This document shows positions 10,283-63,860 of a stretch of DNA of 64,000 nt, piece by piece. This stretch comes from an uncultured bacterium (GTDB lineage Bacteria > Fidelibacterota > Marinisomatia > Marinisomatales > TCS56), in assembly GCA_964439935.1 (NCBI GenBank), contig CAYTPW010000009.1:1623-65622 (forward strand). The letters run 5' to 3'. Under the pieces are notes generated by a model. That model saw only the letters and a list, made by a program, of their open reading frames with translations, was not told the origin of the DNA and did no database searches. The translations under genes and the position numbers were made by a program. The first letter of the stretch is position 1. Each line of letters begins with the position of its first letter.

Positions 10283-10334
10283 AGCCTGGGAAATTAATTC
10301 TATATATAGATGTATGAAAAGCAGGAAAATCTAT

Positions 10335-13335: not shown

Positions 13336-13341
13336 CACAGG

Positions 13342-15234: not shown

Positions 15235-15580
15235 CAGTAAGTTGATTATCAAACGACTCGGATACTCACGCCAATCAATGACTTTATGACACCTGCATAA
15301 ATTTCAAATCCTCAGATTTTCAACCAAAGGGGATAAATTCCGGAGGATCATTTTTCCGATTTTGAATATGATTTTTCGTTGAACATATCAATCACATTGT
15401 TTCATTATTATTTCAGCAATAGGGAGTATGATTGACAAACTCACAGTTACGCTGTAAGTTGTAGGAAATAAGCTGGCACATAGAACTGGAGATCAATTAG
15501 TTTTAAAATTTCTGTGAGTCAAATATTCAAGCTATTCAATTCAAGGAAGAATTAACGATTATGGCAAGGAAAGCCGATCA

Positions 15581-35577: not shown

Positions 35578-35856
35578 TGCAGTCGTGCACCATCGCTTGA
35601 CCAGTCTGGAGATTCATCTGATCGCAATAGTTGGCTCCCCTTCAGGATACCGCCACCAATTGACTTCAACACCTACCGCTGCTCCTTTCCAGGCCTGACG
35701 GGATTTAGCGTAAAACCATTGCAACGGTTTGAAGTTTCAACGCCACTTTTCACGATTGCTGAATACAGCACCGGCCGTACTTTGGAGTTAAACCCTGCTG
35801 TAGCGGATTGCAGGTTACAGGGCACCGCTACCTCCCCGTCTAGCACGACCACAATG
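35578..35856 (-). ncRNA. ffs: Signal recognition particle RNA, long (Alu-domain-containing, Bacillus-type) form; ends approximate
   Basis: The minus strand contains the helix-8 core GTCAGGCCTGGAAAGGAGCAGCGGTAGG (compare E. coli GUCAGGUCCGGAAGGAAGCAGC). Its 5' segment GTCGTGCTAGACGGGGAGGTAGCGGTGCCCTGTAACCTGCAATCCGCTACAGCAGGG resembles my recollection of the B. subtilis scRNA Alu domain. The 3' end GGTGCACGAC can pair with the 5' GTCGTGC. It lies directly upstream of dnaX, as scr does in Bacillus. Confidence 0.8.
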
Positions 35857-35891
35857 TCAATTAACGCTCTGGTTTTCGTCTAATTCTAACG

Positions 35892-35964
<73 letters not shown>

Positions 35965-36212: not shown

Positions 36213-36590
36213 TCAATAATAAATCACAATTTTTATTTCATCCAATTCGATCCAATCCCAGAAATTCGATCGATCGAGTTTGATGACGCCGTCTTGAAAG
36301 CTGAATCGCACACGTTTGCGATACAGTGACTCGGTAAACCACTGCGAATTATTTCTTTTGTAATAAATCGCTATATATGGCGGACTGTCGGCTTTGAAAT
36401 CTGGTATTATCAGAGTACAAATCGCCTCGTTAAACTCCCCTTCTTCAGTAATAAATTCCACCTTGGTAAAACTGTATACGCGCTTGGTAAGATTTGTGTA
36501 ATCCCGGTACTTGTGAATTGATTGGCAATCAGCCCATGGCGAACAGGCACAAATTATTGCCAGAAGTAATATACCGTTCCGCCAATACAT
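36213..36590 (-). CDS. Hypothetical exported protein
   Basis: 125 aa with an N-terminal signal-like segment (GILLLAIICACSPWADC). Last gene of the 42815->36213 co-directional block. Confidence 0.55.
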   Translation of the reverse strand: MYWRNGILLLAIICACSPWADCQSIHKYRDYTNLTKRVYSFTKVEFITEEGEFNEAICTLIIPDFKADSPPYIAIYYKRNNSQWFTESLYRKRVRFSFQDGVIKLDRSNFWDWIELDEIKIVIYY

Positions 36591-36636: not shown

Positions 36637-37014
36637 TTAACTTTTTTTCTGCTCCAGCATCTCCAATCGACGTTCCCACTCACTCATTTCCCGCGCCGGT
36701 TCTTCTGTTTCTTCCTCGGCAGGTTCTTCTTCAACTATCTCAGTTTCACTTTCCTGATGTTGAATCATATTCTGTAGTTGTTCCCGGCGGGTCAGTGACC
36801 GCTGTTTTAATTCCACCAGCATTTCATTGACTTCATTATCAAATTCAGCGATTGTCCGCTCCAGGCGATTCAATAATTCATCCTGCAGAGATACACCATA
36901 CTGGGAACCAATATTTTCCAGGATGTTGCCCAGTTTTTCACTGATATAATTTGCTGCATCAATTTCTGGTGCTGGTTTGGGAGCTGTTTTGTTGGTTGTC
37001 TTTGCCACTGGCAT
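36637..37014 (-). CDS. Small acidic coiled-coil protein (paralog of 16714-17046)
   Basis: 125 aa, core YGVSLQDELLNRLERTIAEFDNEVNEMLVEL...REQLQNMI, an E-rich tract, then MSEWERRLEMLE. Separated by 8 nt from the upstream gene. Confidence 0.65.
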   Translation of the reverse strand: MPVAKTTNKTAPKPAPEIDAANYISEKLGNILENIGSQYGVSLQDELLNRLERTIAEFDNEVNEMLVELKQRSLTRREQLQNMIQHQESETEIVEEEPAEEETEEPAREMSEWERRLEMLEQKKS

Positions 37015-37022: not shown

Positions 37023-37823
37023 CTATTCTTCAATATTAATGATTTTCTGCACTTCTTCTGGTGAAAGGGTAAAATGTGTTTTAGGACTGGTGAGAATATT
37101 GACCGCCTCATACATCTCCCGTCCTCCAAGTAGACCTAGCAGTATACCCATAAAACGGTAGTGCCAGCCCATTTCGGGTACAGGATTGGTATGGCCATTC
37201 CAGACTTCAGCCAATCCCAATCCCATCAAAGCACCTGCCGTATAAATCCATTTACGCCAACCATATCGGATATTAAAGAATTCGCGATATGCTATTCCAC
37301 TAACTTGATGGTAGGGAAAATCCAGGACTTGAACAGGAGTCTGGATTTGAAGAGAATGGTCAACAGATGGTAGTAAAATTCCACGGATCTTTTTACCGCT
37401 GACGTGTTTGATGATAACATATTGTCCGGTGGGTATCTCCTCCAGAATTTCACTCGTTCTTAAATATGTTAGATTTTCATAAATCTCTTGCCGATCCTTC
37501 ATCGTAATAGCCGGTTTACGATCAATCATGTGTTTTAACCTGATAAATTTATCGAAAGTATAATTCAGGGTTTTAATTTTGATCCTTCCAGATTTCAGAT
37601 AGGCAATTTTCACTTGGTAAGTATCATCAGGCAATGCAAAAATCTGGGCGCTCTCAAACCCAATCACATCTTGGAAGATTCCAAAAACGATATTCTCTTC
37701 CGCATCGATTGTTGTGCCAACCTTGGCGCTGAGAGGTATGATCTCCGGTGACTGGGAAGTTGCCCAACTTGCCAGTAATAAACCGATAATCAGGATTGTC
37801 TTATAAAACCGCCAGCAATTCAT
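37023..37823 (-). CDS. Hypothetical envelope protein (signal peptide plus C-terminal Gly-rich hydrophobic helices)
   Basis: 266 aa, signal TILIIGLLLASWATSQS. The C-terminus has two hydrophobic segments (IYTAGALMGLGLAEVW; FMGILLGLLGG). Overlaps the SelW-like gene by 23 nt. Confidence 0.6.
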   Translation of the reverse strand: MNCWRFYKTILIIGLLLASWATSQSPEIIPLSAKVGTTIDAEENIVFGIFQDVIGFESAQIFALPDDTYQVKIAYLKSGRIKIKTLNYTFDKFIRLKHMIDRKPAITMKDRQEIYENLTYLRTSEILEEIPTGQYVIIKHVSGKKIRGILLPSVDHSLQIQTPVQVLDFPYHQVSGIAYREFFNIRYGWRKWIYTAGALMGLGLAEVWNGHTNPVPEMGWHYRFMGILLGLLGGREMYEAVNILTSPKTHFTLSPEEVQKIINIEE

Positions 37824-38022
37824 CTAATTCCGGAAAACGTCCCGATTCTTTTTTTGAGAAAATCAGTTTATCATTTTTGGTCACCTCAAAAACGCCGCCT
37901 CCGGAAGGAATTAACGTCATTGACTTAATCTTATTTCCATATTTAGTTAAAATGTCCACAGCCACACTGGCTGCTCTAGGTAAATAATTTCAGGCATTAC
38001 AATATTCAATGCTTACATGCAT
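37801..38022 (-). CDS. Rdx-family (SelW/SelT/SelH-like) selenoprotein; UGA at 37992..37990 read as selenocysteine
   Basis: Not in the ORF track. My translation is MHVSIEYCNA-U-NYLPRAASVAVDILTKYGNKIKSMTLIPSGGGVFEVTKNDKLIFSKKESGRFPELDELLAVL* (73 codons). It has the CxxU redox motif, the GGGVFEV...LIFSKK..GRFPE pattern typical of bacterial SelW-like proteins, an AAAGGAG RBS 11 nt upstream of the ATG and a hairpin downstream of the UGA. Confidence 0.8.
37958..37974 (-). promoter_or_regulatory. Candidate bacterial SECIS hairpin
   Basis: On the mRNA, 15 nt after the UGA: GCAGCCA-GUG-UGGCUGU. This gives a 6-7 bp stem with G and U in the apical loop, consistent with bSECIS spacing and loop rules. 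Confidence 0.55.
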
Positions 38023-38105: not shown

Positions 38106-40337
38106 TCATAATTTAAAAGCTGTCTCGATTGTTGTTTGTTTGATCGGGATTAATTCACCGGTCCCATCATCGCGGTAGAACTGGCGAAAATCCCAAATCA
38201 TACTAACTCCGGATGCAATGGCATATCCGACCCGGTAGCCAATGATTGTATTGATGCTGGGATTAGCAAAATCAAATGGATTTGAGTCATTGTTACGCTG
38301 GTAGTAAGCACGCGCTTCACTCAATTTCGGAATCAGATCTGGTTTGATCTCAAGTCCAGCATTGAAACTGTTATACTCTAACGTATCCTTTACCATATTG
38401 GTGTAGGATGCATCGACCCGGACAAGATCGAACAGATTAATACCGGCTGATCCGTAAAAACCCGACATTGACATATCTGAATTTTCCTCACCAAATACCT
38501 GCATATCCTTGGTCCGAACAATTGTCGAAAAACCATCATTAATCGGGACAACCCGTGTTATATCGTAAGATTGATCAAAAAAGCGCGGCACGAAATAACC
38601 TGATTTAATCCGGTATTCAACATTAATATTAATCATACTGAACAGGGTTGCCTTAAGACCCGGTATTGTAATTCCGTCACCTGATCTTGCTTCCGGTCGG
38701 TAAAAGGCTGTTCCCGAATCGCCATCCGCCGGAAAACTAAGGTGGTTCCATTCTGTATATACGGTCAACTGTGCCGATTTTAATTTGATAATTGGGTAAC
38801 CTATATCCAATCCATACCCAAAGGCCTGAGCCTGGCTCCCCTGTGCGCTGAATGGTTCACTCTTTAAAATGACCTCTGTATCACTGCCACCGATCCATGG
38901 ATCAAAATATTCATCATCGTCAGAATTAGGATCCCATAATATTGAATCGGTTCCGGCATGGGGATCCGGAATTCCATCACCATCCGTATCGTTCCAGAAT
39001 AGCTTGTCATTGGGGTAATCATCAAAAGCATCGGGGTAACTATCATCATCGCTGTCAACCAATCCGGAGAATTGATTCATATCCATCACAAAATTGACAC
39101 CGAATGTGAGCGGAAAATTCCTGGAGACTGTATATGAACTTCTGAGACCCATTAATGTACCACCGCGGGAAAAATCCTTCACATTTGACAAGAAAATTTC
39201 AACGCCAAATGATCCAAAACCAAATCCACTGTTGACACCTATCTGGCGCACAGTCGGAAATTCCATCATATTGGAATAACCACTGAGAATACCGCCATAA
39301 CCCAGAGTTACGTTTTCCAGAGCGCCCAATTTAATCCAGAAGGGATCGCCTTTATCGGCCCAGCGGATGTAGAGGAATTTATCCACGATATCCGAAGCTT
39401 CATTCCACTCCTCCTGGCGGATATTACCTTCATTATCGAGGTAAATAACAAGATCAAATCCCAATCCTAGCTTACCAATTTTCAGTTCAGGTCGGAAAGC
39501 TAGCTGATTATACACAATTCCATCAATCGTCACTGAACCGACACCAAAGCCCATTCCAAATGGTTTTGACGGTGGCGAAGGAGTCGATTGCGGGACATCA
39601 GTATCCGGTGTCTCCGGGCTGGTTTCAGGCTCCGGTGCGGGTGCCTGTTCCGGCAGCACTTCCTGTGGGAATTCTTCCGGTATCGCTTCTCCCGGAGCTG
39701 GGGAATACTGTTCAATTAACTGATCCAGTTCCCCGGTTCCGACATCAGGATCGGGATCGATGGGGAATTCAGTTGGCGTGGCCGGTGCGGAGATAACATT
39801 TCCGGTTGGACTGGATAATGCTTTTTGTCCCGGTCCAATTTCCACGGACTGTCCGCTGACCAGATTGAAAACATCAAAGATTCCCTCCTGGCCGTAAAAC
39901 TGGTCGATCCCGCTGGCATCCACAATTGCAGCAAAGATGGTACCCTTCACCGATGCCACTGACGTGGGAGTTTGAACCCGGAAAGTTTTAGTCCTGTTTT
40001 CTTTATTGATATCGTTGATAATTGTGCCTATTTCTATATCGATTGTACGGGTATTCTCAGTATCAACGAACTGGAACTGAGTATTTTCCTTCATTTTAAT
40101 TACGGATTTGTCATCAAGATACATAACGACTGCAAAACTGGCTGATTCGACACGCACGATATCACCGTTACTGATCCCGAATCCTGGCTTTACTAATGTA
40201 TTAAAAGCCTCCGCAGCAACTTTTTTCAATTTGACCGAACCGTTTACTTTGATAACCCGGGCAATCGGCGTGGCTCCGATTATTTGAAAAAAAAGTGCCA
40301 CTCCCAAAATTTGGAGTAAATATTTTTTTGCCAACAT
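38106..40337 (-). CDS. Secreted FecR-domain protein with Pro/acidic linker, TSP3-like Ca-binding repeats and putative C-terminal beta-barrel (paralog 1)
   Basis: 743 aa with a signal peptide. The FecR-like N-terminal domain includes GDIVRVESASFAVVMYLDDKSVIKMKENTQFQF and FRVQTPTSVASVKGTIFAA. The linker is PAPEPETSPETPDTD. Aspartate-rich repeats are DSDDDSYPDAFDDYPND and DTDGDGIPD. The C-terminal region alternates hydrophobic and polar residues. GGAGGA RBS. Confidence 0.8.
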   Translation of the reverse strand: MLAKKYLLQILGVALFFQIIGATPIARVIKVNGSVKLKKVAAEAFNTLVKPGFGISNGDIVRVESASFAVVMYLDDKSVIKMKENTQFQFVDTENTRTIDIEIGTIINDINKENRTKTFRVQTPTSVASVKGTIFAAIVDASGIDQFYGQEGIFDVFNLVSGQSVEIGPGQKALSSPTGNVISAPATPTEFPIDPDPDVGTGELDQLIEQYSPAPGEAIPEEFPQEVLPEQAPAPEPETSPETPDTDVPQSTPSPPSKPFGMGFGVGSVTIDGIVYNQLAFRPELKIGKLGLGFDLVIYLDNEGNIRQEEWNEASDIVDKFLYIRWADKGDPFWIKLGALENVTLGYGGILSGYSNMMEFPTVRQIGVNSGFGFGSFGVEIFLSNVKDFSRGGTLMGLRSSYTVSRNFPLTFGVNFVMDMNQFSGLVDSDDDSYPDAFDDYPNDKLFWNDTDGDGIPDPHAGTDSILWDPNSDDDEYFDPWIGGSDTEVILKSEPFSAQGSQAQAFGYGLDIGYPIIKLKSAQLTVYTEWNHLSFPADGDSGTAFYRPEARSGDGITIPGLKATLFSMININVEYRIKSGYFVPRFFDQSYDITRVVPINDGFSTIVRTKDMQVFGEENSDMSMSGFYGSAGINLFDLVRVDASYTNMVKDTLEYNSFNAGLEIKPDLIPKLSEARAYYQRNNDSNPFDFANPSINTIIGYRVGYAIASGVSMIWDFRQFYRDDGTGELIPIKQTTIETAFKL

Positions 40338-40485
40338 AAAAACCGGTCCTCCGCAGAATAGTTATTGATCCCTGAAAGCACTTACGGTGGAATTTAAGTG
40401 CCCCTGAAATCTGGCAACGTGAGGAAGTTCACGTCGAACTGATTGTGATTAATTTATTGCTAAATCCAATTAAAAGGAAGAATAC

Positions 40486-40515
40486 AATCAGGGGCAAGTG
40501 AACATGCCCCTGATT
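40486..40515 (-). terminator. Strong hairpin downstream of paralog 2 (possible terminator)
   Basis: AATCAGGGGCA-(8 nt)-TGCCCCTGATT, an 11-bp stem followed on the minus strand by GTATTCTTCCTTTT, a moderate T tract. Begins 33 nt after the stop at 40548. Confidence 0.45.
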
Positions 40516-40547
40516 GATGAAAGCATCGTGATCTGACTAGAGATCAG

Positions 40548-42815
40548 CTAAAAATTAAATACCGTTTCAATAGTGGTTTGCGCGATTGGTTCCAACCCAT
40601 CACCGGTATCGCGGTAAAACTGACTGAAGTCCCAGATCAGGCTAACACCAGCACTGATTTCATACCCCAGCCGATAGCCAAAAACTGTGTTTTCAGAGGG
40701 ATTATTAAAATCAAATGGATCAGCGTCGTTATTCCGAATATAATAAGCTCTAGCCTCGCTTAATTTAGGAATCCAATCGGTGTTCAGTCCAGCTACCGCG
40801 GTAAAGCTGCGCACTGTATCGGTTTCAGCCTTCATGTTGGCATAGGAGGCCGACACATTGGCAAAGCCAAAGATATCCCAACCGGCGGATCCAAAGTAAC
40901 CTGATAGGTCAGAATCGTCGACCAAAACTAACATGTCTTTGGTATATATCTCTGTTTCGCCCTGTGAATTTCTCATTGATATTACGCGCGAAATATCATA
41001 TGACTGGTCGAAGAAACGGGGAACGAAATAACCGGTCTTATAACGATATTCGGCATTAATCTGTATCATTTTGAATAGAGTCAGCTTTACACCAGGAATA
41101 GTTATACCTGTTCCTGACTGGGTATCGCGTCCTATGAATTGAGTCCCGGAGGCGCTAGCAGATGGAAATATCAAATGATTCATCTCTGAGTAGATATCGA
41201 TCCCAATAATATTATTACTGAAAACGGGATAACCGACGTCAAATGCAAAGCCAAATGCTCTTGCATTGTTATTTTCCGTACTAAAGGGATCATTGACTAA
41301 TTCAATGAGTGAATCAGGAATGACATCGTAATACGCACTCATATCAATTCCAGTAATAGATTCTATATTCTGCCAGTACTCTAAGATAGCCGGACCAGCC
41401 ACATCTGGATAATCATCCCCATCTCTATTTGTTTCAGCTGGATCATTATCAGCGAGTCCATCATCATCACTATCTTTCCAATACTCTTCCTGATCTGGAA
41501 ATTTGTCAAATACGTCGGGATAATTATCTCCATCACGATCCTTTAATCCCGAAAACTGATTAATATCCACCACCAGATTAGCTCCAACTGTCAGCGGTAA
41601 AGCCTTCGAGAATTTATAGGAAGCCCTGGCACCCAGCAGAGTACCACCACGCATCAAATCTTTAACATTAGAAAGGAAAATTTCTGTGTTGATTTTTTCC
41701 TTGAACTGCATCCCCATGTTAACGCCCAGCTGCCGGACTGACGGATACTCCATCATATTTGAATATCCATTCAACAATCCGCCATAACCAAGTGTCACAG
41801 TCGGTAATGTTCCAAATCTGACCCAGAATGGATCACCTTTTTGGGCCCAGCTGAGATACATGATTTTATCCATGATCACGCTGGGATCATTCTTAACATC
41901 CCAGTCATCCTTGCGGACATTCCCTTCATTATCGATATACAGGACTATATCGAGGCCTACACCCAGTTTGCCGAATTTTAACTCAGGTCGTAAGGCAAAT
42001 TGATTGTAGATCACACCATCGATAGTAACAGAACCGATTCCCAATCCGAAATTATAGGGGCTGTCTTCAGCGGCTTCCCCGGTATCTTCCGGTGGAGCGA
42101 CTTCCTCAGGCACTGGTTGAGTTTCATCTGGAGTAACTTCCTCGGCACCAGTATCCTCCACTTCGGCGTCTTCGTCATCAATTTCTTCGTCAGAATCCGG
42201 TTCTGGTTCAGGTTGTGGTTCCGGCTCAGCATCCGGGTCGCTGGGATATTCATTCGGCAGTGCCGGAGCCTGAATCAAAGCACCGGCAATATTTGAAATC
42301 GCTTTCTGACCGGCGCCGATCGATACAATTTGCTGACTGATCAGATTCAATACTTCGACCAGACCACTGGACCCTAAGAACTGGTCAACACCAAATATGG
42401 AATTTACTATCGCCGTAAATTCAGTACCTTTCACCGAGGCAACAGATGTTGGTGTTTCAATCCGAAATGTTTTAGACCTACCCTCAGTGGCGATCTGATT
42501 GATCAGTGTTCCATTTTCAATTTTCAGTGTACGGCTGCTTTCTGAATCCACGAATTCGAATTCGGAATTCTCTTTAACCTTAATAACCGACCGGTCATCG
42601 ATAAATACCACCACAGCGAATCCTAGTTCGCCAACTTTCAGGGCATCACCATTGTTAATGGCAACTCCTGGCGCGGCGGCTTCTGCAAACTCGGGTCCAC
42701 CCAGCCTTTTAATATTTACTTCACCTTGAGCTTTCATTACCCGGGCAATGGATTCGGCTACAGTAAATCCGGTCATCAGACAAATGACCATTAAACAAAT
42801 AATTATTTTTTTCAT
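40548..42815 (-). CDS. Secreted FecR-domain protein with Pro/acidic linker, TSP3-like repeats and putative C-terminal beta-barrel (paralog 2)
   Basis: 755 aa, collinear with 38106-40337. Shared blocks are FRxxTPTSVASVKGT, GSVTIDGxxYNQ, GDPFW, LGYGGxLxGYSNMMExP, EIFLSNVKD, GITIPGxK, GYFVPRFFDQSYDI, IPKLSEARAYY and QTTIET. Ends in ...VFNF, a C-terminal Phe as in many OMPs. Confidence 0.8.
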   Translation of the reverse strand: MKKIIICLMVICLMTGFTVAESIARVMKAQGEVNIKRLGGPEFAEAAAPGVAINNGDALKVGELGFAVVVFIDDRSVIKVKENSEFEFVDSESSRTLKIENGTLINQIATEGRSKTFRIETPTSVASVKGTEFTAIVNSIFGVDQFLGSSGLVEVLNLISQQIVSIGAGQKAISNIAGALIQAPALPNEYPSDPDAEPEPQPEPEPDSDEEIDDEDAEVEDTGAEEVTPDETQPVPEEVAPPEDTGEAAEDSPYNFGLGIGSVTIDGVIYNQFALRPELKFGKLGVGLDIVLYIDNEGNVRKDDWDVKNDPSVIMDKIMYLSWAQKGDPFWVRFGTLPTVTLGYGGLLNGYSNMMEYPSVRQLGVNMGMQFKEKINTEIFLSNVKDLMRGGTLLGARASYKFSKALPLTVGANLVVDINQFSGLKDRDGDNYPDVFDKFPDQEEYWKDSDDDGLADNDPAETNRDGDDYPDVAGPAILEYWQNIESITGIDMSAYYDVIPDSLIELVNDPFSTENNNARAFGFAFDVGYPVFSNNIIGIDIYSEMNHLIFPSASASGTQFIGRDTQSGTGITIPGVKLTLFKMIQINAEYRYKTGYFVPRFFDQSYDISRVISMRNSQGETEIYTKDMLVLVDDSDLSGYFGSAGWDIFGFANVSASYANMKAETDTVRSFTAVAGLNTDWIPKLSEARAYYIRNNDADPFDFNNPSENTVFGYRLGYEISAGVSLIWDFSQFYRDTGDGLEPIAQTTIETVFNF

Positions 42816-46113: not shown

Positions 46114-47289
46114 TTGAACCGAATATTTTTAACCGTCCTGTGCTTTGGAAATCTGATGAGTACAAGCCAGCTATTGGCTGCGGGTGAAAATATTACTAAA
46201 GCTAGTAATTGGGGGTATAGTTACAATGATTTACTTAACGATCTGCCAATTTGGAATGCCAGTCCCTGGGTAACTCTCGATTCGATCGGTGCCAGCGTTC
46301 AGGGAAGAGCATTGTGGGAGTTGACCATCACCGATACCCTGCCACACGATTCACCGCGTCGCACTATCTATATGCACGTTCGCACCCATCCCAATGAAGT
46401 ACAGTCATTCTGGGTTGCCAACGAATTTATCAATCTGCTTCTTTCTGATGATCCTTACGCTGCGTTTTTACGATCGCGATGCACTTTCTATATTATTCCC
46501 ATGTATAATCCCGATGGTGTCGAACTCGGCTTTCCCAGGGAAAATGCCAACGGAATAGATATTGAAAGCAACTGGGCCGATATTCCAATGCAACCAGAAC
46601 CAACGGCCTTGAAGCAGCGATTTACAGACCTGATGGCATCCGCCGCTCCGATAGAAATAGCACTAAATATGCATTCTGCGTACAGAGCCGCTGTTAGGTA
46701 TTTTGTCTATCACCATGAGAATGGAACATCATACGAGTATACTCAGCTGGAACAGCAATTCATTGGAGCAGTTCAATCATATTTTCCTACCGGGATCGCC
46801 CCCTGGTACCACACTGTTACCTGGACCAATTTTACTCCCGATTATTATCCCGAAAGCTGGTTCTGGCTGAACCACGGTAATTCTGTAATGGCTTTGACTT
46901 ACGAAGATATGAACAATGATCAGGCAGGCTTGTATGATTCCACTGCCTACGCTCTGCTTCATGGGATAGGTGACTATCTGGGATTGGTTCCCTCAACAAC
47001 TGTTGTTGAAGTAACTGATCATCCTCAAACATTCACTCTGAACCAAAATTATCCCAATCCATTTAATCCGATCACAACAATCAGTTATTATCTCATAAAA
47101 CCGGGATATGTTACCATGAATATATTAGACTTGAGAGGTCGTACAGTGGCAACTCCAGTAAATACATTCCAATCAGCTGGGAACAAACAAATACAGTGGA
47201 ACGGTGAACTGTATCCCACAGGAACATATTTCTACCAGCTAATAGTCGACGGACGGCAACAAACAGGGAAAATGACTATGCTAAAATAG
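46114..47289 (+). CDS. Secreted zinc carboxypeptidase (peptidase M14) with T9SS C-terminal sorting domain
   Basis: 391 aa with a TTG start and a signal peptide. Has an HPNE zinc motif, PMYNPDG and NMHSA. The C-terminus NYPNPFNPITTISYYL...GTYFYQL...KMTMLK matches the Por_Secre_tail pattern. Confidence 0.8.
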   Translation: MNRIFLTVLCFGNLMSTSQLLAAGENITKASNWGYSYNDLLNDLPIWNASPWVTLDSIGASVQGRALWELTITDTLPHDSPRRTIYMHVRTHPNEVQSFWVANEFINLLLSDDPYAAFLRSRCTFYIIPMYNPDGVELGFPRENANGIDIESNWADIPMQPEPTALKQRFTDLMASAAPIEIALNMHSAYRAAVRYFVYHHENGTSYEYTQLEQQFIGAVQSYFPTGIAPWYHTVTWTNFTPDYYPESWFWLNHGNSVMALTYEDMNNDQAGLYDSTAYALLHGIGDYLGLVPSTTVVEVTDHPQTFTLNQNYPNPFNPITTISYYLIKPGYVTMNILDLRGRTVATPVNTFQSAGNKQIQWNGELYPTGTYFYQLIVDGRQQTGKMTMLK

Positions 47290-47360: not shown

Positions 47361-48617
47361 ATGACATCACATCCACTAATAAAGCTGATAGCCGATAAAA
47401 ATCTGTTGGGGAATCTAGCCGACGAATATGGCACTCCGACCTACATCTATTCGCAACCGCGCCTGCTCGACAATATTAACCGACTAGATAAAGCACTGCG
47501 GCAGAATTTTGATAAGTATCATATCTGCTATGCAGTTAAAGCAAACAGTAATCCTAATTTAATTGCGGTGATGAAGGCTCACCTGCCCAACCTGGGTGGA
47601 GATTGCGCAAGTCCTGGTGAGATCGAAGCAGCTTGGTTAGCCGGAATCAAATCGCAAGATTGTATTTACACTGGAAATTATGAATCGCCCGCAGATTTGC
47701 AGTACGCCCTGGATTCTCGCATTTGCATCAATCTGGATGATGTATCATCATTGGACCGTTTAGCGCGCCTAAAGCTACCGAAACGTCTGTCATTCCGGCT
47801 TAATCCCGGATTTGGTAGGGGCATGTTTAAACAGATCAATACGGGAGGTGAAAAGGCAAAATTCGGTGTTCCCCGACATGATATTATTAATGCTTATTCG
47901 AAAGCGTTGAATCTGGGAGTCAAACGTTTTGGGCTACAATGCATGACCGGATCCGGTATTTTGGATAAAGATTATTTTGCAAGCTTATTGACCGCAATCC
48001 TGGATTCCGCTAAAAATATCGATACAGAACTCGGCATTAAAATGGAATATATATCTATCGGGGGTGGGCTGGGAATTCCATATCAGGACAAAGATCAGCC
48101 CCTGCCAATTGATTACGTGATGAAGCAACTTGGTGAAGTTTTTTATCAATATTATGACCGGAAAGCAATCGATTGTCCAGCTCTATGGCTCGAGCCGGGT
48201 AAGTATATTGTTGGCGATAGTGGATTCGTATTATCAAGAGTAACCGGGATTAAAAAAGGGTACCGCACTTTTATTGGTTTGGATGCTGGGATGGAAACCA
48301 TCCTTAGACCGGCCCTCTACCAAGCATACCATAGATTTTTAAAGGTCGGTGATCCCGATGCCAATCCGGTTGGCAAAGTCGACTTTACCGGCCAGATTTG
48401 CGAAAATACAGACCGCCAGGCCATTGATCGGTCTTTCCCTTCTGTCGCAGAAGGAGATTTAATAGCGATTATGGATGCGGGAGCATATGGATTTGTAATG
48501 TCAATGAATTATAACTCACGTCCCCGGCCGTCGGAGGTTTTATTGACTGAATCGGGATCCCAGTTAATTCGCCATCGTGAAATGATCGATGATATTTATG
48601 CTAAATGCATTTTATAA
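47361..48617 (+). CDS. lysA: Diaminopimelate decarboxylase (PLP-dependent, Orn/DAP/Arg decarboxylase family 2)
   Basis: LADEYGTPTYIY N-terminus, PLP lysine in YAVKAN, then GGGLGIPY, EPGKYIVG, CENTD and AGAYGFVMSMNYNSRPRP. ATG at 47361; the track uses the TTG at 47352. Confidence 0.85.
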   Translation: MTSHPLIKLIADKNLLGNLADEYGTPTYIYSQPRLLDNINRLDKALRQNFDKYHICYAVKANSNPNLIAVMKAHLPNLGGDCASPGEIEAAWLAGIKSQDCIYTGNYESPADLQYALDSRICINLDDVSSLDRLARLKLPKRLSFRLNPGFGRGMFKQINTGGEKAKFGVPRHDIINAYSKALNLGVKRFGLQCMTGSGILDKDYFASLLTAILDSAKNIDTELGIKMEYISIGGGLGIPYQDKDQPLPIDYVMKQLGEVFYQYYDRKAIDCPALWLEPGKYIVGDSGFVLSRVTGIKKGYRTFIGLDAGMETILRPALYQAYHRFLKVGDPDANPVGKVDFTGQICENTDRQAIDRSFPSVAEGDLIAIMDAGAYGFVMSMNYNSRPRPSEVLLTESGSQLIRHREMIDDIYAKCIL

Positions 48618-51048
48618 AAGATTAGTTGGCTTCCTGATCTTATTGGGCATAATAGTCGCCCAGGATCACCAATCGATCCATCAGGAGCAGGCTGAATATT
48701 ATCGGCAGAATTATCGTCACCCGGCTAAACCCGACGACAGTGGTCCTCTGCTACCCAAGCAATTGCGAACAACTGAACCAAGTCATACTGTATTCGGTTA
48801 TCACCCTTACTGGATGGGAACTGCCTGGCAGAATTATAATTACAATTTGCTTACTACTGTTGCTTGGTTCAGTGCCGAAGCAACCCCAACCGGGCAGTTG
48901 AGCGATCTGAACGGCTGGCCGGTAACCGGATTGATTAACCTGGCACATTCCCATGGAGTCGAGGTTGTACTTTGCGTGACCCTGTTTGATGACGCGGATC
49001 TGACCACACTACTGAGCAATCCTTCTTATCGCCAGAATTTGATCAATAATTTGATCGCACAGATTCAAGCCGGGAATGCGGATGGCGTCAATATTGATTT
49101 TGAAGATTTCCCCAGCTCGCAAGAAAATAGTATGGTCCAATTTATCAGCGATTTGACTGACGCATTCCATTCGCAAATCCCAGGATCGCAGGTTACACTA
49201 GCCACTCCTGCTGTGGATTGGAGTAATGAATGGGATTACAATGCTCTGGCGGCTGCCAGTGATGGCTTATTCATCATGGGCTATGGCTATCATTGGTCAG
49301 GCAGTGACTACACCGGTGCGATTGCTCCTTTAACCGGTGGATCTTACAATATTACCTGGACCGTAAATGATTATCTAACCAAGACGAATAATCAATCTGA
49401 TAAAATCATCCTGGGCCTACCCTATTATGGTCGCGAATGGGAAGCTGTAAGCGCCAGTCCCGGAGCAGCAACCCTCAGTTCTGGAGCGGTACGGTTATAT
49501 GATGCTGCCGAAGCACTGGCAATGACCTACGGCAGAATCTGGCACGGCAGTTCACAGACTCCCTATTATACCTATCAAAATCCCGGTTGGTACCAGGGCT
49601 GGTATGACGACAGTTTGTCATTATCCATAAAATACGATCTGGCGATCCAGAATGATCTTCAGGGTGTGGGAATGTGGGCATTGGGCTATGACGGTTCAAG
49701 TCCCAAATTATGGCAAGCGCTGGCAGATAAATTTGGTGGAGTATTACCACCCACGGAACCGCAGAATTTTACCATCAGTAATCTTGGGAATGGAACTGTT
49801 GAAATTGATTTTAGCGGCTCTAATTCGGCAGATAGTCTCACCATTCTGCGTCACTATCTAAATTCAAGTCAAATTGATATACTTGGCACATATGACCAGC
49901 ACCCGATTCTGGTCAATAGTTTAGCAACCACCGAGACCTATTTTATCAGCGTCGTTGCTTCAAACGCTGCTGGTGATAGCCCCGCGACCGAAATACTGGG
50001 TGTCAAACCAGATACTAATCTATCCAATGCGTTGATAATCAACGGTTTTGACCGCCAGTCCGGAACTACTAATCCCCGAAACTACTTTACTCAGCACGGA
50101 TCTGCACTAGGGCAAGCTGGAATCAGCTTCGATGGTGCCTGTAATGAAGCTGTTATTGAAGGATTGATCAACCTGAATGATTACACCGTGGTGGACTGGA
50201 TATTGGGTGAAGAAGGCGCTACAAACTCAACATTTACACTCGCAGAGCAAGCTCTAATCCAGGCCTATCTTGAACAAGGTGGACATCTTATGGTCTCAGG
50301 TTCCGAAATCGGCTATGACCTGGTTGACCAAGGTAATAGCCTGGATCAGGATTTCTATTCCAATTATCTTAAAGCAGAATATGTCACAGATGCCGCCGGT
50401 GGCCAATCTGGTGTTTATCAGGCCTGGGGAGTTTCAGGAAGCATTTTTGATGGTATCAATGCAATCAATTTTGACAACGGAACCCATGGAACTTATGATG
50501 TCGATTGGCCTGATGGCATTTTACCAATCGTTGGGGCACAAAATTGTGCCCGTTATACCTCTGTGGATTACGACGCTAAAGGTGGTACCGGAATAGTATA
50601 TAATGGTCCCTTCGGAACCAGTACGGCATACGGGGCTCTGGTTTATTTGGCGATCGGTTTTGAAGCTATATATCCGGAATCAAAGCGAAATGAGCTTATG
50701 TCGCGGATTACTGATTATTTTGATCAAGCGGAAGGTGGAACAATCAATCCCCCTGAAATACCAGTCGAATTTGGAATCACCTCAATTTACCCAAATCCGA
50801 CTAATAGTACAGTCACGATTGAGTTTTCATTGGCCTTAAATGTCGCTCAACCGGTTGAAATTAGTATAATTGATATGCTGGGTCGCACAATTCAAACATT
50901 AGTTCTTACACAACAACAATTAACTAATAACCGAGTAAGCTGGAATGGATACTCTGCCAAAGGTTCTATTGCTCCGTCAGGGGTATATATTGCCTTGCTA
51001 AAATCCGGTTCAAAATCCGATATCAGTAAATTTACGGTATTAAAATGA
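48598..51048 (+). CDS. Secreted multidomain glycoside hydrolase family 18 protein with Fn3-like region, unknown domain and T9SS C-terminal domain
   Basis: Signal peptide. GH18 catalytic block ADGVNIDFEDF (DxxDxDxE). An Fn3-like segment (PPTEPQNFTISNLGNGTVEIDF), then an unassigned domain of about 250 aa. The C-terminus is YPNPTNSTVTIEFSL...GVYIALL...KFTVLK. The start is 48598 or 48589, overlapping the lysA end. Confidence 0.8.
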   Translation: MLNAFYKRLVGFLILLGIIVAQDHQSIHQEQAEYYRQNYRHPAKPDDSGPLLPKQLRTTEPSHTVFGYHPYWMGTAWQNYNYNLLTTVAWFSAEATPTGQLSDLNGWPVTGLINLAHSHGVEVVLCVTLFDDADLTTLLSNPSYRQNLINNLIAQIQAGNADGVNIDFEDFPSSQENSMVQFISDLTDAFHSQIPGSQVTLATPAVDWSNEWDYNALAAASDGLFIMGYGYHWSGSDYTGAIAPLTGGSYNITWTVNDYLTKTNNQSDKIILGLPYYGREWEAVSASPGAATLSSGAVRLYDAAEALAMTYGRIWHGSSQTPYYTYQNPGWYQGWYDDSLSLSIKYDLAIQNDLQGVGMWALGYDGSSPKLWQALADKFGGVLPPTEPQNFTISNLGNGTVEIDFSGSNSADSLTILRHYLNSSQIDILGTYDQHPILVNSLATTETYFISVVASNAAGDSPATEILGVKPDTNLSNALIINGFDRQSGTTNPRNYFTQHGSALGQAGISFDGACNEAVIEGLINLNDYTVVDWILGEEGATNSTFTLAEQALIQAYLEQGGHLMVSGSEIGYDLVDQGNSLDQDFYSNYLKAEYVTDAAGGQSGVYQAWGVSGSIFDGINAINFDNGTHGTYDVDWPDGILPIVGAQNCARYTSVDYDAKGGTGIVYNGPFGTSTAYGALVYLAIGFEAIYPESKRNELMSRITDYFDQAEGGTINPPEIPVEFGITSIYPNPTNSTVTIEFSLALNVAQPVEISIIDMLGRTIQTLVLTQQQLTNNRVSWNGYSAKGSIAPSGVYIALLKSGSKSDISKFTVLK

Positions 51049-52352
51049 AATCAATTACCATCCTGTTTGCAGTAGGAATTTGTGCTAGTTTCGTAATGGC
51101 TCAAAATCACCCCTCGATCCACCAGGAACAGGCACGGCAACACAAAGGGCAGATTAATCCACCAGCGGACAAAATTAATGTCCTGAATGGGATTGATGTT
51201 TTGCTGGAGCAGCAAGCTAACAGGTTGACTGGCAAGAATATCGCACTGGTGACAAATCATTCCGGGATTGACAAACAAGGTCAGCCCAATTATCAACGCT
51301 TAATGGAACTGGAACAAATCAACCTGCAGGTTATCTTTTCACCCGAGCATGGATTATTCGGAGAAGCCGCTGCAGGTGAAAAAGTGAAGTATGGAAAAGA
51401 TATTAAAGAATTACCTGAGGTAATAAGTCTATATGGGAAAATAAGGAAACCTACAGCGGAAATGCTCAATGGTATTGATCTTATTCTTTACGACATCCAG
51501 GATATTGGCGCACGTTTTTACACCTATATTTCTACGATGGGTCTGGTAATGGAGGCAGCCGGTGAATTGGGAATACCGATTTGGATTCTTGATCGACCTA
51601 ATCCGATTCGAGCAGATTTGGTGGAAGGACCTGTTTTGGATATCAATTATCAGTCTTTTGTTGGCTACTACCCGATTCCGATTCGTTATGGCTTAACGGC
51701 AGGAGAACTGGCACAGATGATCGTTGGTGAAAAATGGATAATCACAATTCCAGAACTTGAAGTAATTCCATTGCAGGATTGGACTCGCGATCGCTGGTTC
51801 GATGAAACTGACCTGCCCTGGATTAAACCATCTCCGAATATTACAGACCTCGAAACAGCGCTAATCTACCCTGGTATGTGTCTATTGGAAGCTACTAATG
51901 TCAGTGAAGGCCGGGGTACCTATCAACCATTTAAAAAGTTTGGTGCTCCCTGGATCGATGGCCACCGATTAGCACAATCGCTTAACAAACAACATTTGCC
52001 AGGCGTTATATTTAAACCGGTACAATTTATTCCCGTATCTATCCCCGGAATGTCAGGTAAGCCCAAGTACCAGGACTTAGCTTGTCAAGGAATCGAAATA
52101 GTGGTTACTAATCGAACGAAATATCGAAGTTTAATGGTGGGAATCAGCGTCCTGTCCACAATTCAATCACAGTATCCGGATGAATTAAAATTCCGGACGA
52201 ATAGCTTAAACCGATTATGGGGATCAGATTCACATCAGGCAACGATAAATTCATATCCCGAACAAACCGAATACATTGATTCCGGCCAGGTGGAATATCA
52301 TGAAATTGCAAAGAAATATCATATTTATTCCAATAGTTACAGAAATCCCTAG
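51045..52352 (+). CDS. namZ: DUF1343 / NamZ-type exo-beta-N-acetylmuramidase
   Basis: 435 aa with a signal peptide. GKNIALVTNHSGID, SLYGKIRKPTAEML..IDLILYDIQDIGARFYTYISTM and EGRGT closely follow my recollection of the B. subtilis YbbC/NamZ pattern. ATGA overlap with the GH18 stop. Confidence 0.8.
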   Translation: MKSITILFAVGICASFVMAQNHPSIHQEQARQHKGQINPPADKINVLNGIDVLLEQQANRLTGKNIALVTNHSGIDKQGQPNYQRLMELEQINLQVIFSPEHGLFGEAAAGEKVKYGKDIKELPEVISLYGKIRKPTAEMLNGIDLILYDIQDIGARFYTYISTMGLVMEAAGELGIPIWILDRPNPIRADLVEGPVLDINYQSFVGYYPIPIRYGLTAGELAQMIVGEKWIITIPELEVIPLQDWTRDRWFDETDLPWIKPSPNITDLETALIYPGMCLLEATNVSEGRGTYQPFKKFGAPWIDGHRLAQSLNKQHLPGVIFKPVQFIPVSIPGMSGKPKYQDLACQGIEIVVTNRTKYRSLMVGISVLSTIQSQYPDELKFRTNSLNRLWGSDSHQATINSYPEQTEYIDSGQVEYHEIAKKYHIYSNSYRNP

Positions 52353-61538: not shown

Positions 61539-63860
61539 TCAGCTAATCTGACCTTCCATGGATTTCTCCAGGTTGCGAGCCATCTTTATAAAGTCTGCTA
61601 CCGACAGATCCTTCAGGAAGATTAATCCGTGTGCCGAACGTAGCCTGGGATGTTCATTCTGATACCAGAAATCCTTGCCCTGCAATAACTGCAACTGCTG
61701 GTGTTGTTCGACCCAGATCCGCTGGGCCAGATCGCTGAATGGTCCATCATATTCATGACTGGGGAATGATGCTTCTTTTTGGCTTAAGTAACTTTCCATG
61801 AACATTGATTGAAAAACAGCCAGTGAATTGATGGAAACAGGAATGATAATATCAGCCTCGGCCGGATTGAAACGATACCATACATTTCGGTAACCCCAGA
61901 TTCGTACCTGGGACAGATCTTTTTCCTTTTGCCATTCCCGCACTGCTTCTGCGATTGCCTGCAGCACTTTGTAGTGTGTATCCGGACCGCTTCCCTCCGG
62001 ATCCAGGGCTAATGTGATCACGGTAGGATCAAGCTGACGCAATTGATCCAGAATCGGTGGAATATCACGCTTTCGATCAGGTTGCTCTGTGAATACATCA
62101 CCGGTATAAAAACCTAGACGTAAATGGCTGACATCCCGGACCCTGACTCCAAGGTGCGCCCAGACCAATTCTTCTTCAAATTCCCTGATCATCCCTTTCA
62201 ATAATTGAATTGGCGGAGGATTTTTTTCGCCATCGTAACAACCTTCCAGATAAGTAACAATATCGCGAATTTTTACACTCAACTCTGATTTGGATTCAAC
62301 CGAATATATCTCTATCAGCGCTCGTACCACTCGATGGCACAATCCCCGTTTCTGGCCGGCAATATTTTTGGCTGCTATCTTATCCAAATAATGGTAGACA
62401 TCCTTATCACGCTTAAACTTAAAACCACCGTCAAAAAAATCAGGATAATCAGTCATCTGGATCTGCCCAGCATCGAGTAATCTACCGGTTTCAGCCAAGA
62501 TCGAGATGACATAGGCATTGGTGACCGAAGTGAATCCAGAGGTCAGTACTGAAAAATGATGACGGTTGAGTGGTGTCCGTGCCAGGTGCAGTATTTGAGG
62601 CGTATAACCCAGCATAATATCATCGTGGTGGGGTCCGGTGTGATAAAATATCTGGTCAACCGGCAGATCCAATCCCCGCTCCATTTTGCCGGTCAAATCT
62701 GCCAATACACCAGCAACAGTGTCTTCATCAATTGCTGGAATTTTACTGCAATATCGATCGGCCCGCAGATCTTCAACTGTGATGTTCTGGCCAAATTTCT
62801 GCAATTGATTCACCAGATTAATCACAGCCCGGTCAGTTTTTTCCTGATCCCAATCACCGGTAAAAAAATATTCATCCACACTATCTTTCAGAGCAGCAGC
62901 AGCACTGCGCGTCAAGTAAAATCGACTGTTGGGAAGGTTTTGTAAAACTGTCGCCGGATAATGATTATCCCGTTGGCTCTCCAGAGATTTTTTAACGATT
63001 GACGCTTTCGCTTCTCCAGCGGCAATGATTATTGCAGTTGCTTCAGGATTATAAGTTATAGTCGACAATCCAATCGTAATCACCAACCGGTTACGGGAGA
63101 TTTCAATCCCGCCCAAGTCACCTGCGGCGGCCGCCTGGGTTTCGAAATTTGTCTCCATCAAACGGGTGGTAGAATTGTGATCAGAGCCACGTACATTGAA
63201 AGCTATATGACCATCGGGACCGATTCCGCCCAGGAAAAATCCGATTCCGCCTTTTGCCCGGATCTGTTCCTCGTATTCAGTGCACCACTGATCAATCAAA
63301 AAGATGGTTTGCTGGCGGTCCTGATCAGGATCGGTCTGACAATCGCAATAACGGAGGGATAAATCCACTTTATTGTCGGGGAAAATCGCCACGACCGGCA
63401 AATTTTGGTAGGTGGGAATCGTAGTGCAGTCAATCAGTTGCGCCCGAGATTCGTCCAGGCCAAAGTCCTTTATATAATATTTTTTCACATAATAATAGAA
63501 GCTGTTGTGCTGCTGTGAATCAATGGGAAAAAATTCATCAATCTGGACAAATTGTAGTCCACGAAAATCGGGTTTTTGATTGATATCCAATCCATTATCG
63601 CGGCGCAGTTCAACCAATTTTTTATCATTCCAGTTGTTAATAAAATGATAAACCCATTTTATAAAATATTCCGGTGTCTTGCCTGTTGGCAGACTGATCA
63701 CGCCTTCGGGATTTTCATTAACCCATTCCAGAAAACGCAAAGCGGTGAAAAAACCAAGTTTGGGAAAATTATCGACTAATATATATGGTACCCTGGTTGT
63801 GGGCTCGGACCGTTGTGATTTCTGGAAGAAAACCTGTTCAACTGGCGATAAGTTAATCAT
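61539..63860 (-). CDS. Fusion protein: NagB-like glucosamine-6-phosphate deaminase/isomerase domain plus PIG-L/LmbE-type deacetylase domain
   Basis: 773 aa. The N-terminal half has LPTGKTPE, IDEF and [16 protein letters not shown]. The C-terminal half has the HTGPHHDDIMLGY (xHxDD) LmbE/PIG-L metal motif. Confidence 0.8.
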   Translation of the reverse strand: MINLSPVEQVFFQKSQRSEPTTRVPYILVDNFPKLGFFTALRFLEWVNENPEGVISLPTGKTPEYFIKWVYHFINNWNDKKLVELRRDNGLDINQKPDFRGLQFVQIDEFFPIDSQQHNSFYYYVKKYYIKDFGLDESRAQLIDCTTIPTYQNLPVVAIFPDNKVDLSLRYCDCQTDPDQDRQQTIFLIDQWCTEYEEQIRAKGGIGFFLGGIGPDGHIAFNVRGSDHNSTTRLMETNFETQAAAAGDLGGIEISRNRLVITIGLSTITYNPEATAIIIAAGEAKASIVKKSLESQRDNHYPATVLQNLPNSRFYLTRSAAAALKDSVDEYFFTGDWDQEKTDRAVINLVNQLQKFGQNITVEDLRADRYCSKIPAIDEDTVAGVLADLTGKMERGLDLPVDQIFYHTGPHHDDIMLGYTPQILHLARTPLNRHHFSVLTSGFTSVTNAYVISILAETGRLLDAGQIQMTDYPDFFDGGFKFKRDKDVYHYLDKIAAKNIAGQKRGLCHRVVRALIEIYSVESKSELSVKIRDIVTYLEGCYDGEKNPPPIQLLKGMIREFEEELVWAHLGVRVRDVSHLRLGFYTGDVFTEQPDRKRDIPPILDQLRQLDPTVITLALDPEGSGPDTHYKVLQAIAEAVREWQKEKDLSQVRIWGYRNVWYRFNPAEADIIIPVSINSLAVFQSMFMESYLSQKEASFPSHEYDGPFSDLAQRIWVEQHQQLQLLQGKDFWYQNEHPRLRSAHGLIFLKDLSVADFIKMARNLEKSMEGQIS

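Follow-up and report, generated by a model that had tools for sequence, protein, structure and literature searches.

The window analysed here is a stretch of 64,000 nucleotides from an uncultured bacterium (GTDB lineage Fidelibacterota; Marinisomatia; Marinisomatales; TCS56; GenBank assembly GCA_964439935.1, contig CAYTPW010000009.1, positions 1,623 to 65,622). It carries two adjacent genes, par1 and par2, encoding related proteins in which a putative signal peptide is followed by a FecR-type domain, a disordered linker and a predicted outer membrane β-barrel. This FecR-barrel protein is conserved across the phylum, normally as one copy in fixed synteny. Domain content, fold class, conservation, selection and phyletic spread come directly from the analysis. 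Building on them, we suggest that the protein may act in the outer membrane as a channel or an anchor, offering a tethered FecR-type binding module to a partner in the periplasm or the inner membrane, a reading to which we assign a rough probability of 0.45. In the dark ocean and in oxygen-minimum zones the Marinimicrobia (SAR406) are abundant but uncultured, and next to nothing is known of their envelope biology.

Both genes are uninterrupted open reading frames (ORFs) of the minus strand. Upstream in the pair is par2, which occupies 40548-42815 and encodes 755 aa; the downstream gene, par1, occupies 38106-40337, encodes 743 aa with the same architecture and holds the ancestral position adjoining two further genes, Rdx and p266, that are discussed below. 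These are exactly the limits given in a preliminary description of this DNA, which had reported adjacent collinear genes of 743 and 755 aa. The products align collinearly from end to end with about 49-51% identity and 64% positives, and the six blocks that had been listed as identical (FRxxTPTSVASVKGT, GSVTIDGxxYNQ, LGYGGxLxGYSNMMExP, GYFVPRFFDQSYDI, IPKLSEARAYY and QTTIET) were all found in both translations. With at least 987 full-length homologues, the pair is not a chance feature. The names of the homologues, together with the G+C content of the window, point to a Marinimicrobia (SAR406, Neomarinimicrobiota, Fidelibacterota) genome as the source. A hydropathy scan detected only one strongly hydrophobic 19-mer in either paralog, at the N-terminus, which is consistent with a Sec signal peptide and with the absence of a further transmembrane helix. 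In par2 the predicted signal peptide covers residues 1-20 (42756..42815, minus strand), reading MKKIIICLMVICLMTGFTVA and followed by ES. Its cleavage site is placed by the small residues at -3 and -1, the Kyte-Doolittle value of the 19-mer is 2.17, and the structural model has a helix at residues 2-16 followed by the first strand. Hydropathy and model thus agree with the signal peptide proposed earlier.

The identity of the N-terminal domain was established with Pfam profiles and by structure comparison. Family PF04773 (FecR) matches par1 at residues 71-139 with 37.3 bits and par2 at residues 70-134 with 33.7 bits, in both cases above the gathering score of 24, and the Pfam scan of the whole proteins gave nothing significant beyond FecR. 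An AlphaFold2 model of par2 (mee05b23f7fbf) was built from a 31-sequence alignment, with a mean predicted local distance difference test score (pLDDT) of 67 and a predicted template modelling score (pTM) of 0.51. In this model residues 22-184 are all-beta and contain no helix according to DSSP, with pLDDT values of about 56-86. Foldseek superposes the region on the periplasmic domain of PupR (6OVK chain R) with a root mean square deviation (rmsd) of 2.0 Å over 129 columns, corresponding to 129 of the 213 positions of that chain, and also on BDI_1681 (4M0H/4M0N) with an rmsd of 2.5 Å. The FecR domain of the preliminary description is thereby confirmed in both copies. On the minus strand it lies at 42264..42752 in par2 (residues ~22-184) and, in the collinear position, at 39783..40271 in par1 (residues ~23-185). 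The periplasmic module of PupR consists of a 129-residue all-beta CJM subdomain and a beta-alpha-beta STN subdomain, and binding of the signalling domain of the transducer requires both (PMC7186176). Because no helix is predicted ahead of the linker in par2 and the CJM-sized all-beta part stands alone, the STN half is missing, and the domain corresponds to the CJM subdomain of PupR and FecR.

This domain contains the block SVASVKGT(E/I)F, which is the best conserved of the family, and G130 and T131 (par2 numbering; 42423..42428, minus strand) are invariant in all 31 sequences. An hhalign alignment to E. coli FecR pairs VKGTEFT with ALGTEFT and places Gly130-Thr131 onto Gly181-Thr182, in a register that agrees with the Pfam and NCBIfam matches of the region. 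FecR cleaves itself at Gly181-Thr182, after which the fragments stay associated (PMC12036975). At the level of sequence, the Gly-Thr pair is kept and aligned with this self-cleavage site; conservation does not prove that cleavage occurs.

The best NCBIfam matches of the N-terminal region are to the Leptospira proteins Lsa33, Lsa19 and LipL45, with about 30 bits against cutoffs of 250-420. Since these models have a FecR-type domain directly behind a signal peptide, this order is not new in itself. The preliminary description had spoken of an inverted FecR architecture. Its observation that the domain directly follows the signal peptide stands, but the term overstates the case: secreted FecR domains are common, the pattern is already named in the three Leptospira models, and only the CJM half is present, without STN. 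What is genuinely unusual is the fusion of the FecR-type domain to an uncurated barrel family.

Between the two folded domains lies a linker that was originally described as about 70 residues long, rich in proline and acidic residues and divergent between the copies. It measures 67 aa in par1 (residues ~191-257, 39567..39767, minus strand; P17 E10 D6 T5 Q5, hence Pro/Glu/Thr-rich) and 62 aa in par2 (residues ~190-252, 42060..42248, minus strand; E17 P12 D11 A6, hence Glu/Asp/Pro-rich, with an EPEPQPEPEP run). The two can barely be aligned with each other, in line with that description. The AlphaFold2 model leaves par2 residues 194-251 disordered (pLDDT 21-39). Throughout the family the linker has 58-80 aa and a composition rich in E, P, D, T and Q (31 of 31 members), whereas its sequence is unconserved. 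In orthologue pairs the ratio of nonsynonymous to synonymous substitution rates (ω) is 0.14-0.28 in the linker (0.18-0.23 for that of par2) against 0.03-0.11 in the FecR and barrel domains. Because length and composition are kept while the sequence is not, the segment behaves as a spacer or tether, and we infer that its length would suffice to span much of the periplasm.

The C-terminal regions comprise 486 aa in par1 and 504 aa in par2. The barrel domain of par1 (residues 258-743, 38109..39566, minus strand) ends in ...TTIETAFKL, with Leu as the final residue, and that of par2 (residues 253-755, 40551..42059, minus strand) ends in ...TTIETVFNF, with Phe as the final residue; the two are 56% identical and share the same conserved blocks. 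In the AlphaFold2 model, analysed with DSSP, about 20 long antiparallel strands extend over par2 residues 254-754 and are broken by an Asp-rich insert at residues 418-519. Foldseek searches with the barrel region returned outer membrane barrels exclusively, with AlgE as the best match (E 2e-7), followed by OprB, Occ, MOMP, OmpG, FadL and ushers, at a probability of about 1.0 and with 8-10% identity. Phe is the final residue in 27 of the 31 family members, as part of an alternating ...TTIETaFnF motif. An alternating motif with a terminal Phe is the classical β-signal for the β-barrel assembly machinery (BAM). The hydropathy of strand residues, averaged over the family, alternates with a value of 2.36, compared to 1.39 +/- 0.22 in within-strand shuffles, none of 2000 of which reached it. 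When the model is parsed into 20 strands starting from a periplasmic C-terminus, the periplasmic turns have 2-7 residues and the external loops a mean of 24 residues, an asymmetry that would be canonical for outer membrane proteins. On this parse the Asp-rich insert would be an external loop, as would the two non-strand segments of the barrel with the highest conservation, TLGYGGLLxGYSNMMEYP and YFVPxFFDQSYDxxRV, which could fold back into the lumen. The model supports the fold class of an outer membrane barrel, as had been proposed initially, but not membership of any of the families matched.

The Asp-rich insert of par2 (41259..41564, minus strand; 19% Asp), a predicted extracellular loop, contains three D-x-D-x-D(G) segments, the central one of which is a perfect DxDxDGxxD motif (DTDGDGIPD in par1, DSDDDGLAD in par2). 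Residues D426, D428, D430, D448, D450, D452, G453 and D456 (par2 numbering) are invariant in the family. The preliminary description had called these repeats similar to thrombospondin type 3 (TSP3) repeats. The motifs are indeed there, but neither Pfam TSP_3 (PF02412) nor TSP3_bac (PF18884) matched par1 or par2, either with the whole proteins at E <= 1 or with the isolated inserts at E <= 10. Among the isolated inserts of seven family members, relatives reach the TSP3 models at E 0.07-5 with 7-13 bits, against a gathering score of 25, and some relatives give a weak match to a thrombospondin-type MtsC model. In a sequence search of solved structures the family profile found no FecR-type or barrel match and only, weakly, the TSP3-repeat region of an OmpA-family protein of Capnocytophaga (5WTL, E 0.003). 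Membership of the TSP3 family was rejected on account of these sub-threshold profiles, and a generic resemblance to DxDxDG calcium-site motifs is what the sequence suggests.

A profile of both window barrels, searched against 1.84 billion representative proteins, showed how widely the domain occurs outside this architecture. At E <= 1e-3 the family comprises 1,066 representative clusters, of which 184 also pass E <= 1e-30. Many members have only 480-560 aa, with the barrel starting at residue 20-50, and are thus barrel-only; some of these are from Marinimicrobia. Fifty-five representatives are extended at the N-terminus. Pfam FecR was found in 38 of them, weak DUF7354 matches also occur in six, and the others have low-complexity extensions, so apart from DUF7354 the FecR domain is the only recognisable domain fused to the barrel in this set. 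No Pfam family covers the barrel in any of ten varied members, and the barrels of par1 and par2 match neither a Pfam nor an NCBIfam family. Judged from these searches, the barrel is a separate family without a curated model, which occurs alone or fused to FecR. The only NCBIfam signal of the barrel family, weak but recurrent, is to Leptospira ImpL63 (NF047543) in the second half of the barrel; the model matches residues 289-395 of the family member P0133 with E 1.6e-6 (27 bits, against a cutoff of 1000) and par2 residues 525-672 with E 1.5e-3. Published work uses ImpL63 to mark the inner membrane; if it truly belongs to the barrel family, this use would have to be re-examined.

At least 561 loci encode a relative in a genome scan that covered one genome per GTDB species. 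All named records among the 80 loci that were kept are labelled Neomarinimicrobiota, Marinimicrobia, Fidelibacterota or "FCB group"; the scan is biased towards Marinimicrobia because a close alignment served as the query. Beyond this phylum, the named members include one from Candidatus Cloacimonas, of the FecR-barrel type, and one from a metagenome-assembled genome (MAG) of Spirochaetota, which is nearly barrel-only. Public annotation of the FecR-barrel proteins reads only "FecR domain-containing" or "hypothetical", and literature searches combining FecR with β-barrel architecture and Marinimicrobia with FecR returned nothing relevant. The fusion, the barrel family and the sigma-independent use of the FecR/CJM module are not described in Pfam, NCBIfam or the searched literature, while the components are each of a known kind.

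Some further observations were made on outlying family members. The divergent FecR-barrel protein P0206 (844 aa) has a second, weak N-terminal segment resembling DUF7354 or a retention module. Its gene, in locus L089, overlaps by one base the start of the next gene (9535-10995), which encodes a 486-aa tetratricopeptide repeat protein with a faint guanylate/adenylate-cyclase match. This hints at a link between some members of the barrel family and nucleotide-cyclase signalling. A homologue search seeded with P0206 was swamped by low-complexity words and was uninformative. Two of three barrel-only genes that were examined, in locus L087 (region 4929-8599) and in L091 (region 4167-8602), lie just downstream of a gene for a cargo protein with a C-terminal domain of the type IX secretion system (T9SS). 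In L087 this cargo gene is directly upstream on the same strand and gives weak CHU_C and Por_Secre_tail matches. The adjacency may recall the pairs of cargo and PorP/SprF genes in Bacteroidota, by analogy; such cargo genes are frequent in these genomes, and chance is possible.

The tandem arrangement emphasised in the preliminary description turned out not to be the defining state of the gene, since most related loci have a single copy and tandem pairs are confined to the window and loci L006 and L038. Loci L007 and L037, which derive from the same MAG (JBDRBK01), have two copies on different contigs. In L007 a par2-like copy follows the FAD/FeS oxidase gene and precedes unrelated ORFs, and in L037 a par1-like copy precedes the genes Rdx, p266, p125a and p125b. 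Either the copies were parted by a rearrangement or an insertion, or the assembly breaks there. Orthologues of par1 are found in L038 (copy 2, 75%), L037 (69%) and L071 (61%), and those of par2 in L006 (copy 1, 74%) and L007 (66%). Because each paralog has its own orthologues and the paralogs are only about 51% identical, the duplication predates the divergence of at least four species. The pair is thus an old duplication, confined to a subclade, of a normally single-copy gene. In a neighbor-joining tree the par1 and par2 clades are not sisters, which would fit either an old in-situ duplication with unequal rates or acquisition of the second copy from another Marinimicrobia lineage; the tree is too unreliable to choose between the two. 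The proposal that both copies are maintained under selection is upheld by the orthologues that each has in other species and by ω values of about 0.03-0.11 in the folded domains. As synonymous divergence is saturated, these values are rough even for orthologue pairs, the only comparisons that could be used, and the synonymous divergence between par1 and par2 is inestimable.

Gene order was compared over 85 loci and is almost invariant: FAD/FeS oxidase, FecR-barrel, Rdx (55 of 85), p266 (80 of 85), p125a, p125b and then dnaX-ybaB-recR. The gene called p266 lies downstream of par1 on the same strand (37023..37823, minus). Where Rdx is absent p266 abuts the FecR-barrel gene, the end of one and the start of the other falling at 8268 and 8268 in L058 and at 8247 and 8250 in L059, which suggests co-transcription. 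The p266 model (mean pLDDT 72) combines an N-terminal helix that may be a signal or an anchor with a small beta domain of Sm/SH3-like type and a Gly-rich helical hairpin. The hairpin is conserved, with invariant residues E206, W208, N209, R223 and E236. No Pfam family matches the protein, and Foldseek yields weak Hfq/Sm-fold matches at E ~6e-3 and none at E <= 0.001. Neither an extracytoplasmic function (ECF) sigma factor nor a TonB-dependent transducer was found among the 20 window ORFs that were scanned with Pfam, which include all neighbours within ~10 kb, or in the five annotated related loci. The preliminary description had likewise noted none nearby.

In view of the above, a role for the protein in connecting the envelope layers can be considered. 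The protein would be exported by means of its Sec signal peptide, and its C-terminal aromatic β-signal would direct the BAM complex to insert the barrel of about 20 strands in the outer membrane. There it would serve as a channel or an anchor with long surface loops, one of them carrying motifs like DxDxDG calcium sites. N-terminal extensions of outer membrane barrels are periplasmic in TonB-dependent transducers, BamA and SLH-porins, and by analogy we infer that the N-terminal domain and its tether stay in the periplasm as well. The disordered, acidic and Pro-rich tether of 58-80 aa would hold the FecR-type domain there as a module for protein binding, and a partner in the periplasm or the inner membrane would dock to it. 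This docking would couple the outer membrane to the remainder of the envelope. In Marinimicrobia p266 is the obvious, though unproven, candidate for such a partner. If the Gly-Thr site is cleaved, the link would be a two-piece module that could separate, as in FecR.

Several points weigh against this reading. The confidence of the AlphaFold2 model is moderate (the mean pLDDT of 67 and pTM of 0.51 given above), and the target-normalised TM-scores to known barrels are only 0.35-0.40, with rmsd values of 11-15 Å, so that the strand number and the sides of the loops are predictions rather than established features. The hhalign alignment that pairs the Gly-Thr motifs has a probability of only 6% (E 0.006), a low value of the kind to be expected with a single-sequence template. 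The searched literature contains no localisation or expression data on the protein. Since synteny across the phylum extends over the whole region between the oxidase gene and dnaX, the adjacency of p266 is weak functional evidence, and fold searches with its model were uninformative. Divergent FecR-barrel genes outside the core group lack p266 and have other neighbours instead, so it is at best a partner specific to Marinimicrobia. A Rosetta-stone comparison of three contexts found no FecR gene adjacent to barrel-only members. Taken together, the uninformative p266 model, the different neighbours of divergent loci and the barrel-only loci without FecR mean that no partner can be named with confidence.

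Among the other explanations, the one that survives best, though we regard it as improbable, is that the tethered FecR-type domain gates its own porin or export barrel in cis, in a ball-and-chain manner, at the periplasmic mouth. Since barrel-only paralogues show that the barrel functions by itself, the FecR domain with its linker resembles an appended regulatory module. In the wider family no partner is conserved, a long flexible tether suits a domain acting in cis, and the best structural matches, AlgE, OprB and the Occ porins, are channels. However, a tether of 58-80 aa far exceeds the reach needed to the protein's own periplasmic rim, and characterised FecR domains bind other proteins in trans (PMC7186176). 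The AlphaFold2 model leaves the FecR domain undocked from the barrel, at a confidence too low for this to weigh much.

Somewhat less probable still is a form of cell-surface signalling in reverse, in which a barrel with calcium-binding loops and a self-cleaving, tethered FecR module would pass information on the condition of the outer membrane or the cell surface inward, with no sigma/anti-sigma pair involved. The signal would be given when the cleaved halves separate or when they engage an inner-membrane partner, for example p266.

It is also unlikely, and slightly more so, that the barrel exports the FecR-type domain to the cell surface as an adhesin in the fashion of an autotransporter; the acidic linker would form a stalk. 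Classical autotransporters have the same order of signal peptide, N-terminal domain, linker and C-terminal barrel, and the closest NCBIfam models of the N-terminal region, Lsa33 and Lsa19, are named surface adhesins. Yet no autotransporter beta-domain was matched in Pfam, and a barrel of ~20 strands with long conserved loops resembles AlgE and porins in the structure searches, not the 12-strand barrels of autotransporters. The linker is disordered and acidic instead of a pore-filling helix, the barrel-only members have no passenger to export, and characterised FecR domains are periplasmic (PMC12036975, PMC7186176).

Less likely again is a non-barrel C-terminal region, one that would form a soluble or secreted domain, rich in beta structure and binding calcium, with the predicted barrel being an artefact of the mid-confidence model. 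The pLDDT and pTM values, the low TM-scores and large rmsd to real barrels, and the fact that Leptospira ImpL63, a weak relative, serves as an inner-membrane marker would fit this. It is countered by the Foldseek probability of 1.0 to many unrelated outer membrane barrels and to nothing else for this region, the conserved terminal Phe of the β-signal, the significant alternation within strands, an asymmetry of turns and loops that fits the rules for outer membrane proteins, and the lack of a second hydrophobic segment. The three explanations that invoke gating in cis, an autotransporter-like protein or a non-barrel domain are all less consistent with the barrel-only members, the fold matches and the length of the tether than is a barrel presenting a binding module to a partner.

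Finally, we consider it very improbable that the proteins are variant FecR sigma regulators that work with an ECF sigma factor and a TonB-dependent transducer whose genes lie elsewhere in the genome, since the FecR Pfam domain, the kept Gly-Thr motif and the structural similarity of the N-terminus to PupR are offset by the missing transmembrane helix, the missing STN subdomain that is needed together with CJM for transducer binding, the absence of both partner genes from the scanned ORFs of the 64-kb window and from the five annotated related loci, and a start of the FecR domain ~20 residues past the start codon, which leaves no room for a cytoplasmic anti-sigma domain (Pfam reports none). With these features lacking, and in the wrong membrane, where a protein anchored in the outer membrane would be unable to sequester a cytoplasmic sigma factor, an anti-sigma role in cell-surface signalling was rejected.

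Several other features were noted at and around the gene pair. The 210-bp gap between the paralogs contains a hairpin resembling a terminator (40485..40516, minus strand; 12-bp stem with seven G-C pairs), which was detected in a consensus scan 32 nt past the par2 stop; its function as a terminator is not established because the T-tail is weak. Between par1 and p266 lies an uncalled gene for an Rdx/SelW-like selenoprotein (37801..38022, minus strand), with an in-frame TGA in a C-N-A-U motif. Its ORF reads MHVSIEYCNA-U(TGA)-NYLPRA... and has the CxxU motif, and with U replaced by C it matches Pfam Rdx with 83.9 bits over profile positions 1-69 of 74. Gene calls on related contigs cover only the C-terminal 40 aa. 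A 7-bp hairpin begins 18 nt past the TGA, but a selenocysteine insertion sequence element is not established because the overall fold is no better than that of shuffles (z = -0.47). The two small genes beyond p266 are present in most related loci and their products belong to no Pfam family. One, p125a (36637-37014, minus strand), encodes an acidic, helical protein without a signal peptide, and the other, p125b (36213-36590, minus strand), a protein with a signal peptide. Between p125b and dnaX are a tRNA-Ala(CGC) (35891-35964, minus strand) and a large-type bacterial signal recognition particle RNA (35583-35848, minus strand; 129 bits), which mark the downstream end of the conserved block.

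Elsewhere in the window, an M14 carboxypeptidase (46114-47289, plus strand) and a GH18 chitinase-like protein (48589-51048, plus strand) both carry Por_Secre_tail type IX sorting domains, from which it follows that the source organism uses a T9SS. The next gene encodes a NamZ exo-muramidase (51045-52352). A 773-aa ORF at 61539-63860 on the minus strand matches no Pfam family at E <= 1e-4. The stretch 14001-16000 has the lowest G+C content of the window (0.362, compared to ~0.42-0.46 elsewhere) and a locally positive GC skew. A tRNA-Leu (13252-13336) and two ORFs without a Pfam match, at 13819-14511 (plus strand) and 16153-16695 (minus strand), lie close to it. This stretch could be a small island.

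The FecR-barrel gene, found in at least 561 species-level genomes, keeps a fixed position in the chromosome and is under strong purifying selection, yet its annotation is minimal. An uncurated outer membrane barrel family of ~500 aa spans Marinimicrobia, Cloacimonadota and Spirochaetota. As now annotated, the FecR-barrel proteins invite metagenomic studies to infer, wrongly, a role in iron or anti-sigma regulation. As the FecR fold is used here outside sigma-factor control with the Gly-Thr pair kept, the protein offers a simple system for studying the role of the CJM/FecR module itself. The finding leaves no long-standing question resolved.

A comparison with known systems places these proteins between several established types. 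With the FecR, PupR and FoxR regulators (PF04773; 6OVK) they share the homologous all-beta CJM subdomain and the aligned Gly-Thr pair. Those regulators possess a cytoplasmic anti-sigma domain, a transmembrane helix, an STN subdomain and a linked ECF sigma factor and transducer, none of which was found here, and their FecR domain is tethered to the inner membrane, whereas here it is N-terminal and tethered to a predicted outer membrane barrel. Leptospira LipL45 (NF033165), Lsa33 (NF047849) and Lsa19 (NF047876) also have a signal peptide followed by a FecR-type domain without an anti-sigma part, but they are lipoproteins that lack a C-terminal barrel, and the scores of the window proteins are far under the cutoffs of their models. 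Leptospira ImpL63 is similar in size to the barrel-only members; it matches the second half of the barrel weakly and a relationship is unproven.

On the side of the barrel, AlgE and the OprB, Occ and MOMP proteins are outer membrane barrels of similar size with 16-18 strands, a number that probably differs from that of the window proteins. They have no N-terminal domain, and the window proteins give no Pfam match to their families. An alginate export barrel of the AlgE type was rejected, as Pfam gives no match besides FecR and the neighbours are the FAD/FeS oxidase, Rdx, p266 and dnaX genes. A classical (type Va) autotransporter was also rejected in view of the lack of a Pfam match and of ~20 strands and a disordered linker as opposed to 12 strands and a helical linker in the pore. 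Motifs of the DTDGDGIPD type are held in common with bacterial TSP3 repeats, but the Cys/Pro spacing of true TSP3 is absent, and the predicted location of the motifs is a surface loop of the barrel, not a periplasmic stalk.

Two groups of proteins combine an outer membrane barrel with a periplasmic extension. The TonB-dependent transducers FecA and PupB likewise use an N-terminal periplasmic extension for protein contact across the periplasm. Their extension is an STN domain and they have a plug and 22 strands, whereas the window proteins have a FecR-type extension, no plug, ~20 predicted strands and no Plug or TonB_dep_Rec match in Pfam. In OmpM and the other SLH-porins of Negativicutes, Deinococcus-Thermus and cyanobacteria, a periplasmic S-layer homology (SLH) domain that binds the cell wall is joined by a periplasm-spanning linker to a porin-type barrel. 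Although no relationship to them in sequence or profile was detected, their design logic is like that of the FecR-barrel protein, in which a FecR-type domain takes the place of SLH.

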